From the NCBI GenBank assembly GCA_947624625.1, contig CANQLD010000001.1:9830-73829 (forward strand): DNA of 64,000 bases. Reading direction: 5' to 3'. Source of the stretch: an uncultured Clostridia bacterium. Its GTDB lineage: Bacteria > Bacillota > Clostridia > TANB77 > CAG-465. Shown here piece by piece: positions 58,825-60,417 of the stretch. Position numbers and translations under genes: made by a program. How positions within the stretch are numbered: position 1 is the first letter of the stretch; each line of letters begins with the position of its first letter. The notes under the pieces were generated by a model that worked only from the letters and a program-made list of their open reading frames with translations, was not told the origin of the DNA and searched no databases.

Positions 58825-58983
58825 ATGAATACACTATACATACATACATACATACATACATACATACATACATACATACATACATACATACATACATACA
58901 TACATACATACATACTAAGTAATCTAAAAAAAGAAAAAATAGATATGATAGATATAACAAAACCAGAGTTAGAATATGGGTAA
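58825..58983 (+). CDS. short repeat-encoded ORF (MNTL(YIHT)n...), doubtful
   Basis: RBS AAAGGAG then ATG 58825. Most of the ORF is the SSR. Confidence 0.2.
   Translation: MNTLYIHTYIHTYIHTYIHTYIHTYIHTYILSNLKKEKIDMIDITKPELEYG
58837..58914. repeat. (TACA)n tetranucleotide microsatellite, about 19.5 units
   Basis: Perfect period-4 TACA/ACAT tract of 78 nt, about 125 nt upstream of the surface-protein gene. Confidence 0.95.
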
Positions 58984-59037
58984 AATGTTCTAGCTCTGGT
59001 TTTGTTATTTTAAAGATTAATTATGGGGGAAAGGTAT

Positions 59038-60417
59038 ATGGGAAAAACAAGAAAAGCAGGAATAAGTTTAATAGTGATGTTAATAACAATAGTAGTAATA
59101 ATAATACTTGCAGCTTCAATAATAAACACAGTAATATATAATAATCCAATGGATAATGCTAAAGAGGCAGCATTTAGAAGTGATTTGCAAGAAATGAAAA
59201 ATGCTTATGGAATAAGGCAAGGGGATTTAATGGCAAAATATAAAGGAGATAAAAGCAAAATAACAGAAGAAGATTATGCAGGAGTAGTACATAGAAATTA
59301 TACAGGCGAAATACAAGCGTTTGATGTAGGGCTTGCATATTTAGGAAAAGATAAAAAGAAGCAAGAAATAGCAGAAAGTATGGACTATATAATAGGTAAT
59401 CCAAATGACTCTGTATTAAGGTCATGGTCATATGAAATTCCACAAGAAGATTTCCATAAAGATGAGTATAGAACAAAAATAACCAAGATAAAGTTTATAA
59501 CAAGTAATAAACTACCTAAAGGAGTAGTAGACTCTTGGGATGTATCAGAAGGAAATAATGGTTCGGTAATGGCTTGGATAGTAGATGATGGAAATGATGG
59601 TTATGAATTAACAATAGGTGGAAATGGAAAAGTAATTGCAAACAAAAGCTCAGGAAGTATGTTTAGAAATTTTACAGCAGTAAAGGAAATAGATATAAAA
59701 GCATTAGATACAAGTAATGTAATATATATGAGAGATATGTTTTCCTTTTGTAGCAATTTAACAAGTTTAGATTTAAATAATTTTGATTTAAGTAATGTTA
59801 CAACTTTAGAACAGGCTTTTTATGGTTGTGAAAAAATAAAGAGCATAAATATGGACTTTAGTACTGCAAATAAAGTAACAAATACACACGGATTATTTGA
59901 AGATTGTTATGAATTGGAAAATATAGATGTTAGCAAATTCAATACTTCTAATGTAATAGATATGCATTATATGTTTAGAAGATGTGGTAGTTTAAAAAGT
60001 TTAGATTTAAGTAAATTTAATACTAGTAAAGCAATAAATATGACTGGAATATTTGAAGTATGTAGTGGCTTAACTAGTTTAAACTTAAGTAGCTTTAATA
60101 CAATCAATGTAACAAATATGGATAGAATGTTTAATGGATGTAGTAGTTTAATAAGTTTAGATTTAGGAAATCATTTTGATACCACTAGTGTAATAAGTAT
60201 GAGTAGTATGTTTAGTGGATGTAATAAATTAAAAACAAATATAACTATAAAAAATGTTGAAACTTCTTCGTATATGGGTATGTTTTCAAGTGCAGCTACA
60301 GAAAAAGGAGCAGAGATAATAGTAAATTATACATCAGAAACATCAGATTTAGTAGATAAAATGTTAGAAACAAAATCAGAAAAATCAAATGTAGTAAAAG
60401 GAGATTTAGTAAGTTAA
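59038..60417 (+). CDS. surface protein with pilin-like N-terminus and DUF285 (BspA-type) repeats
   Basis: MGKTRKAGISLIVML leader helix. Repeated about 25-aa units of ...MF..C..L.SLDLS.FNTSNV.NM... Confidence 0.55.
   Translation: MGKTRKAGISLIVMLITIVVIIILAASIINTVIYNNPMDNAKEAAFRSDLQEMKNAYGIRQGDLMAKYKGDKSKITEEDYAGVVHRNYTGEIQAFDVGLAYLGKDKKKQEIAESMDYIIGNPNDSVLRSWSYEIPQEDFHKDEYRTKITKIKFITSNKLPKGVVDSWDVSEGNNGSVMAWIVDDGNDGYELTIGGNGKVIANKSSGSMFRNFTAVKEIDIKALDTSNVIYMRDMFSFCSNLTSLDLNNFDLSNVTTLEQAFYGCEKIKSINMDFSTANKVTNTHGLFEDCYELENIDVSKFNTSNVIDMHYMFRRCGSLKSLDLSKFNTSKAINMTGIFEVCSGLTSLNLSSFNTINVTNMDRMFNGCSSLISLDLGNHFDTTSVISMSSMFSGCNKLKTNITIKNVETSSYMGMFSSAATEKGAEIIVNYTSETSDLVDKMLETKSEKSNVVKGDLVS

Follow-up and report, generated by a model that had tools for sequence, protein, structure and literature searches.

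In a 64,000-nt stretch of DNA from an uncultured Clostridia bacterium (GenBank contig CANQLD010000001.1, positions 9,830 to 73,829; this whole stretch is called the window), a perfect (ATAC)20 microsatellite is embedded in a short leader open reading frame (ORF) upstream of a gene for a DUF285 surface protein with BspA-type leucine-rich repeats (LRRs). We contend that this element is probably a simple-sequence-repeat (SSR) phase switch, operating most likely via transcription attenuation. Direct support comes from the anatomy of the region, its conservation, covariation within a hairpin, the logic of the reading frames and differences in repeat number among paralogues and lineages. An earlier note on this DNA had proposed that gain or loss of repeat units truncates or extends the leader and thereby switches expression of the surface protein; the link absent from its interpretation is a terminator-like hairpin that carries the leader's stop codon in its loop. 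The proposal itself is supported by an invariant register between start codon and repeat, with one frame kept open into a conserved hairpin, and is further backed by paralogue repeat numbers of 5, 6, 7, 9 and 20, by the exchange of ATAC for AC units, and by a proven precedent (PMC3894217).

The tract is described by Tandem Repeats Finder (TRF) as an array of period 4 with 20.0 copies, 100% matches and no indels, and it is the same array that had been read in another register as (TACA)19 at 58837-58914. A 20-nt repeat probe was expected to give no matches in 100 dinucleotide shuffles of the window, and all observed matches fall inside the tract; the only other non-homopolymer microsatellite of at least 16 nt found by a regular-expression (regex) scan of the 64 kb is (AT)8 at 2499-2514. 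The AAAGGAG motif, the start codon at 58825 and the 52-aa (YIHT)n leader that had been reported agree with the sequence and the ORF list, and the full translation reads MNTL(YIHT)6YILSNLKKEKIDMIDITKPELEYG. The leader also stops upstream of the surface gene, as claimed, at a distance not of 40 nt but of 54 nt from the better start, ATG 59038, which has GGGGGAAAGG upstream and yields a product identical to a 459-aa database protein (P0001); ATG 59023 is the less likely start. Between the end of the tract and ATG 59038 there are 122 nt.

The hairpin predicted at 58955-59007 comprises 20-23 bp (-32.3 kcal/mol, z = -9.8), its 7-nt loop contains the TAA of the leader, and the terminator scan saw 2 sites against 0.2 expected in shuffles. 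When alleles with n = 4-30 were constructed in silico, the register n = 2 mod 3 placed the leader stop in the loop, the post-tract frame in the phase of n = 20 being open for 21 codons, and the other registers stopped at 58916-58922. The only promoter-like site in the region lies upstream of the leader, with hexamers TTG(T/C/A)AA and TA(A/G)AAT that align in most of 16 cassettes (alignment A6), and the consensus scan found no promoter-like site on the + strand between 58767 and 59038. Given that the interval from the hairpin to the gene has neither such a site nor room for one, transcription of the gene would have to begin at the site at 58739-58767 and pass through the hairpin. A scan of the window against Rfam at gathering thresholds returned no family, and the segment 58684-59040 gives only chance matches resembling microRNAs.

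We propose that transcription would start at the upstream promoter, at about 58739-58767. The unit being 4 nt long, each unit gained or lost by strand slippage moves the leader into another frame. Where n = 2 mod 3, as it is at n = 20, a ribosome would read 21 further codons beyond the tract and terminate at the TAA in the hairpin loop, where it would melt or occlude the 5' arm and part of the 3' arm and so block the intrinsic terminator; RNA polymerase could then proceed into the DUF285 gene (ON). In the other two registers the leader would end 32-39 nt short of the hairpin, the terminator would form and most transcripts would end before the gene (OFF or low). We infer here the transcription start, the translation of the leader, the ribosome-dependent readthrough and the switching frequency.

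Table 1. Predicted and observed features of the leader region and the surface-protein gene (window coordinates; SD, Shine-Dalgarno sequence)
Feature	Position	Strand	Description	Basis
Predicted sigma-70-type promoter P1	58739..58767	+	TTGCAA-17-TAGAAT, upstream of leader	Consensus scan, 9/12 match
Conserved box TATGTAAAC	58800..58808	+	Directly 5' of leader SD	Identical in 15/16 cassettes (three lineages), one C-to-T in the remaining one
Leader SD AAAGGAG	58810..58816	+	8 nt before ATG 58825	Sequence; GAGG/GGAG at same position in all cassettes
Leader ORF, 52 codons and TAA 58981-58983	58825..58983	+	ATG, 8 nt, repeat, then 21 codons to ...KPELEYG and stop	ORF list
(ATAC)20 microsatellite	58836..58915	+	Read as (YIHT)n; stop-free in all three frames	TRF, shuffle control, regex scan
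Other-frame stops TAA 58916-58918 and TAA 58920-58922	58916..58922	+	32-39 nt before hairpin	In-silico alleles n = 4-30, frame analysis
Intrinsic-terminator-like hairpin	58955..59011	+	Stem 58955-58977/58985-59007, loop GGGTAAA 58978-58984, T-rich tail TTTTGTTATTTT 59000-59011	Terminator scan
Surface-gene SD region GGGGGAAAGG	59025..59034	+	About 20 nt after terminator tail	Sequence
DUF285/PARCEL (BspA-type) LRR surface protein, 459 aa	59038..60417	+	N-terminal hydrophobic anchor helix and family-conserved 200-aa N-domain	Pfam, NCBIfam, alignment A1
Terminator-like hairpin after gene	60426..60469		Reported on - strand; symmetrical, A/T runs on both sides; precedes MarR-family regulator and ABC exporter (60640-62831)	Terminator scan

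Conservation of the cassette among relatives

The cassettes examined comprise that of the window, 13 in the rabbit-gut metagenome-assembled genome (MAG) CANRQA01, one in MAG CALWOE01 and two on ENA contigs. The 16-cassette alignment holds the window, 12 of the CANRQA01 cassettes and contigs L012, L018 and L019; L014 and the rest were read separately. A scan of species-representative genomes with the N-terminal domain (N-domain) of the surface protein revealed 14 loci in 'uncultured Clostridia bacterium Lapin-017__bin45', the rabbit-gut MAG, and one locus in a second MAG, at 38% protein identity, which is also a DUF285 gene. An (ATAC)n tract precedes every Lapin-017__bin45 paralogue with a readable upstream region (13 cassettes, n = 5, 6, 7 or 9, mostly 6), and genes in tandem arrays each carry a cassette of their own. 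The distant relative has (AC)13 where the window has its ATAC tract, and since the position is identical, what is conserved is that a non-triplet repeat stands there, whatever its sequence.

The cassettes share an order of elements: -35/-10 hexamers, the conserved box, a GAGG/GGAG Shine-Dalgarno sequence, ATG plus 8 nt, and the repeat. The spacing of exactly 8 nt between ATG and repeat holds in all cassettes examined, including 16 of the 16 aligned, which represent three lineages. Downstream of the tract, every cassette has exactly one frame that is stop-free for 21-40 codons and ends in the hairpin, within the loop in 14 of 16 cases; the remaining frames contain 1-10 stops and close within 0-10 codons, and an open frame would arise by chance with a probability of 0.03-0.15 per cassette. 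Where paralogues differ in length, they do so by whole codons, and the open frame is kept (33-36 codons).

The hairpin is conserved as a structure. In the 16 cassettes, 99.6% of the cells are paired over 15 pairs, compared with 33-46% in slid controls, and three pairs have been altered on both sides in a compensatory manner; the predicted free energies range from -18.6 to -32.3 kcal/mol. The peptide behaves differently: variable sites in the open frame are distributed 13/11/7 over the codon positions, and differences between pairs are non-synonymous in 272 cases and synonymous in 11. The lack of a third-position bias, together with the fact that nearly all changes are non-synonymous, indicates that the openness of the frame and its end point are conserved and the peptide is not. 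The paralogues are just 75-88% identical in DNA, so that the conservation of the cassette reflects more than recent duplication.

Two forms of the cassette can be distinguished. Type A, without any additional segment, is represented by the window and four others, and about half of the relatives carry type B, in which an extra 80-nt segment follows the terminator and contains a strong GTGACA-17-TGnTATAGT promoter-like site (10/12), as at L019:2359-2387 and also in L002, the second cassette of L003, both cassettes of L005, the second of L006, and L013, L015 and L018. A small palindrome precedes this site (TTGTCAGTGACAA in L018). Two further sequence words were noted. The conserved box, in the form TATGTAAA(C/T), occupies the same position in the L001-L019 cassettes and holds an ATG-TAA start-stop pair. 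Within the leader ORF, the block GAGGAAAAAATTGTAAAAACTGTAAAAAAAGAAA (L001:2794-2827, with equivalents in other CANRQA01 cassettes) is conserved at the nucleotide level at all three codon positions and echoes the TTGTAAAAA word of the promoter -35 region; a similar block is present in L012 (about 2768-2790) and none in the window.

The cassette is not confined to DUF285 genes. At L018:3745-5179 an in-frame cassette with n = 7 precedes a 394-aa protein in which no DUF285 or other Pfam domain was detected and whose likeness to the family is limited to the N-terminal anchor segment (KKGISLIVLIV...). The cassette thus travels with the anchor module and not with the LRR domain.

Alternative explanations and the reliability of repeat counts

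Several points weigh against an attenuation switch and have to be set beside the evidence above. Tight coupling of transcription and translation is not universal in Firmicutes, and all promoter and terminator calls given here are consensus predictions. The type-B promoter-like site, from which the cassette of the window is free, would weaken leader control in the copies that have it. Furthermore, exact unit counts are provisional in all these short-read assemblies, including the 20 of the window and the many 6-unit tracts of the MAG: n = 20 (80 nt) could be the minimum of an assembly at k = 77/79. ENA contig L016, a 2.6x short-read contig, represents the same locus at 99.96% identity over 2.5 kb with (ATAC)5 instead of 20, also in frame; its interpretation as an allelic polymorphism was withdrawn, the length lying at or next to the shortest tract that a k = 21 graph returns. 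No read- or strain-level length heterogeneity at the locus was established from L016, from flank contigs or from allele look-up. Exact look-up of in-silico alleles with n = 8-26 in the protein collection found none, and a scan of JGI metagenomes with the leader DNA pattern gave 0 matches. Of the contigs reached via the flanking PAP2 and MarR proteins, some end ahead of the tract or within it and others in the LRR region; in two sibling contigs the break comes 20-22 nt after the tract begins. Exact look-ups of the DUF285 protein (with either start) and of the NCBI paralogues P0001, P0002 and P0004, probably from the genome of the window itself, gave no contigs. Tracts of 5-7 units, as in the related MAG, would also slip much less often than 20 units. 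By register, the window would be ON, as would one of the 13 cassettes in Lapin-017__bin45; such ON/OFF calls are provisional, given the uncertainty of repeat counts in assemblies.

One alternative is that the leader is an independent phase-variable gene for a small protein, a lysine-rich peptide of 32-52 aa with its own terminator, which has no effect in cis on the surface gene. Its predicted promoter, Shine-Dalgarno sequence, ORF and terminator would suit such a gene, a stop codon overlapping a terminator is usual gene-end anatomy, and the type-B relatives carry a separate promoter-like site for the downstream gene. In-frame leaders have moreover been called as proteins in public data: a profile of leader tails found six further leaders, including in-frame ones called as small proteins in ENA assemblies (P0123 and P0242-P0245 are called leaders). 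We nevertheless regard a functional small protein as unlikely, disfavoured by the substitution pattern described above, which is not that of a conserved protein. A Pfam search with the leader peptide matched no family, an exhaustive HMMER search with leader protein P0123 recovered only P0123 itself, and the 52-aa leader matched mostly eukaryotic microsatellite ORFs in the protein database, P0123 being the sole relevant match. In addition, the window and the four other type-A cassettes have neither room nor signal for a separate gene promoter, so that their genes would have to be transcribed by readthrough of the hairpin, and the cassette always stands directly upstream of a family gene.

The repeat might also act at the DNA or RNA level, independently of translation, through promoter geometry, regulator binding or the structure or processing of the 5' untranslated region (5'-UTR). 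Models of this kind are nadA with its (TAAA)n tract, promoter-spacer tracts in general, and the (ATCTTTC)n repeat of Haemophilus influenzae hmw1 with an RNase III hairpin. Effects of intergenic repeats via spacing or 5'-UTR structure are well documented (PMC12721329), and proteins could bind at the invariant TATGTAAAC box and at the TTGTAAAAA words. The suggestion in the earlier note that unit changes alter promoter spacing belongs here, and it had to be given up: the sole conserved promoter-like site lies wholly upstream, with hexamers 69-97 nt from the tract, the + strand has no promoter-like site next to the tract or from there to the gene, and 80 nt is far too long for a -35/-10 spacer. 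No structure is predicted for the (AUAC)n RNA, nor any pairing of it with the hairpin. An action at this level, which we consider improbable, would further leave unexplained the fixed register between ATG and repeat, the Shine-Dalgarno sequence, the single open frame into the hairpin and the fact that AC takes the place of ATAC at one and the same codon position.

It is less probable still that the tract has no switching function and was carried along as an evolutionary passenger when the upstream region was duplicated with the gene family. Paralogues born by duplication are expected to share upstream sequence, the tracts of the related MAG are for the most part only 6 units long, and the sequences examined gave no firm case of heterogeneity; yet paralogues with 75-88% DNA identity have all kept the repeat perfect, its register with the ATG fixed, one frame open and the hairpin compensated, a lineage at 38% protein identity carries another repeat in that place, and from what is generally known of SSR decay a perfect 80-nt tract would be unstable over such distances without selection. 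That the tract or its length is an assembly artefact is hardly credible. Tandem repeats do become shortened or broken in short-read assembly, some related contigs stop within the tract, and lengths of 20 and 5-6 units would coincide with minimal path lengths at common k values. Five independent assemblies of the locus nevertheless contain the tract (the window, L016, L020, L021 and that behind the leader-derived P0123), as does every paralogue elsewhere, so that doubt is limited to the exact count and does not extend to the existence of the tract.

Returning to the attenuation switch, it can be speculated, as a possibility that we hold only tentatively, that in uncultured gut Clostridia which are not pathogens a modular cassette of independent origin diversified together with an entire family of anchored surface proteins, at least 13 paralogues per genome each being switched at the level of attenuation. 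If so, genes with unrelated C-terminal domains would be switched as well, and an opa-like combinatorial surface repertoire would be generated via transcription termination and not via protein truncation. The repeat unit would then be exchangeable (ATAC or AC) provided that the register is kept, and control in trans may come on top through the conserved box and the TTGTAAAAA words. Commensal gut Firmicutes may use contingency loci much like classical pathogens, and SSR surveys restricted to gene interiors or promoter spacers will miss such loci. The cassette, of about 270 nt, also constitutes a compact and portable genetic part that could be put to use again.

The surface protein and the surrounding window

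The downstream gene had been described as encoding a DUF285/BspA-type surface protein, and this is borne out by matches to Pfam PF03382 (E = 7.6e-44) and to the NCBIfam PARCEL model TIGR02167 (E = 2.8e-55, six stretches); the product from ATG 59038 matches P0001 at 100%. Within the family, the first 200 residues are highly conserved and the LRR part is variable, with a number of PARCEL/DUF285 repeats that differs greatly between paralogues (alignment A1). In the gene itself, TRF detects a tandem repeat with a 78-nt period at 59974-60165 (2.5 copies, 71% identity), which corresponds to the 26-residue PARCEL/DUF285 repeats. As modelled confidently by AlphaFold2 (pLDDT 90), the whole protein begins with a helix (residues 11-35 and 40-67) and further comprises a mixed N-domain and a solenoid of LRRs; the best matches of the model in the PDB are LRR ectodomains.

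The label "pilin-like" that had been attached to this protein is weakly supported. Matches to pilin families are far below cut-offs (GspG N-terminus, E = 0.007-0.03; archaeal Pilin_N, E = 0.01), and the N-terminus RKAG|ISLIVML has Val, not Glu, at +5 of a class III pilin signal (G|F/I-T/S-L-I/V-E). A model of the N-domain alone was of low confidence and had no pilin match in the PDB, and a JGI scan with the N-domain profile gave 17 unrelated high-GC pilin N-termini, none of them with repeats.

Contigs carrying family genes repeatedly break in the N-terminal domain, the hairpin or the LRR region (starts of L004 and L007-L011; L017; L040-L042). Short-read assemblies fall apart at the genes of this multi-copy family, so that its paralogues are at least as numerous as counted.

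The hairpin after the gene suggests that the unit is monocistronic. On the other side, the interval 58684-58738, which separates the leader promoter from the PAP2 phosphatase gene (58039-58683), holds no terminator-like site, and PAP2 transcripts may therefore extend into the leader as well and terminate at its hairpin. The window as a whole is AT-rich (22-33% GC), with a segment of higher GC (0.33) at 42-44 kb. Of its ORFs of at least 150 aa, 53 of 55 lie on the + strand, the GC skew is uniformly positive, and no tRNA genes were found in the 64 kb.

Comparison with known phase switches

In Clostridioides difficile, an invertible DNA element decides whether the leader terminator of cwpV forms. 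The cassette of the window would resemble it as a case of clostridial surface-protein phase variation in which an intrinsic terminator in the 5' leader either forms or does not; it differs in that cwpV depends on recombinase-driven site-specific inversion, not on repeat slippage, and has no leader peptide.

Families of intragenic SSR contingency genes include the opa genes of Neisseria with (CTCTT)n and the tetranucleotide loci of H. influenzae. BspA-like genes of 'Candidatus Mycoplasma girerdii' contain intragenic dinucleotide repeats, and tracts of at least 5 units varied in metagenomic reads (PMC5476646). These families and the one described here are alike in being multigene surface proteins (including BspA-type LRR proteins) with a separate non-triplet repeat for each copy and, by the provisional counts in our case, most copies out of frame at any time. 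In opa, lic and the 'Ca. M. girerdii' genes, however, the repeat lies inside the structural gene and truncates the protein, whereas here it lies in a separate upstream ORF and its proposed effect is on termination. An intragenic SSR contingency gene was accordingly rejected as a description of the locus, in which the tract ends 122 nt before the gene ATG within an ORF that has its own stop, as were the promoter-spacer and promoter-proximal SSR types (hif, porA/opc, vlp, nadA), in view of the distance between hexamers and tract.

Regulation without phase variation offers another parallel. In the pyrBI and rph-pyrE operons of Escherichia coli, a ribosome close behind RNA polymerase blocks a terminator, and the rph-1 frameshift of strain K-12 lowers pyrE expression. 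As proposed for the window, translation into the terminator hairpin prevents termination there without an antiterminator structure, and a frameshift leading to an early stop raises termination. These operons differ in sensing nucleotide pools via polymerase pausing, and the frameshift in them is a fixed laboratory mutation.

The closest counterpart is found in the pil1 and pil3 loci of Streptococcus gallolyticus, where a leader-peptide gene that contains (GCAGA)n stands ahead of a stem-loop of -18.7/-28.2 kcal/mol (Danne et al., 2014, PLoS Pathog, PMC3894217). Leaders ending 28-39 nt or more upstream of that terminator result in low pilus expression and those ending within or after the hairpin in high expression; the effect requires both the leader ATG and the terminator, and switching occurs at about 5x10^-3 per cell per generation (PMC3894217). 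The two systems share the arrangement of a promoter, which is a predicted one in our cassettes, a Shine-Dalgarno sequence with ATG, a leader with a non-triplet repeat, a stem-loop (-18.6 to -32.3 kcal/mol in our cassettes) and the ribosome binding site of a surface-adhesin gene. Short leaders end 32-39 nt before the hairpin here and 28-39 nt before it in S. gallolyticus, long ones end in the loop here and within or after the hairpin there, and both have more than one locus per genome. The differences are equally clear. There is no sequence homology, and the unit is ATAC (AC in the distant relative) instead of GCAGA; the host is an uncultured gut Clostridia lineage of 24% GC instead of a streptococcus, and the cargo a DUF285/PARCEL LRR family instead of sortase-assembled pili. 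The long leader is produced in one of three registers as opposed to two of three in pil1, and the cassette is found on at least 13-18 paralogues per genome as opposed to two loci, some copies having an extra post-terminator promoter-like site. Finally, pil1/pil3 control has been proven experimentally, whereas the switch of the window is proposed from sequence analysis.

The element of the window would thus be a non-homologous addition to the leader-peptide attenuation switches of the pil1 type. Because unit, leader peptide and cargo all differ from those of pil1, and leader searches match only the lineage of the window, it is an analogue and not a homologue. In the literature searched, repeat-driven control of a terminator by a leader peptide was worked out only for pil1/pil3, and a 2025 review covering a century of phase variation mentions neither leader peptides nor attenuation nor terminators. 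The chief interest of the cassette is that such a mechanism would have arisen more than once and could control an extensive repertoire of surface proteins in gut commensals that are uncultured. Given that the same logic is built from unrelated sequence and stands before every readable member of a large BspA-type family, the mechanism established in S. gallolyticus appears to be a recurrent solution and not a curiosity.

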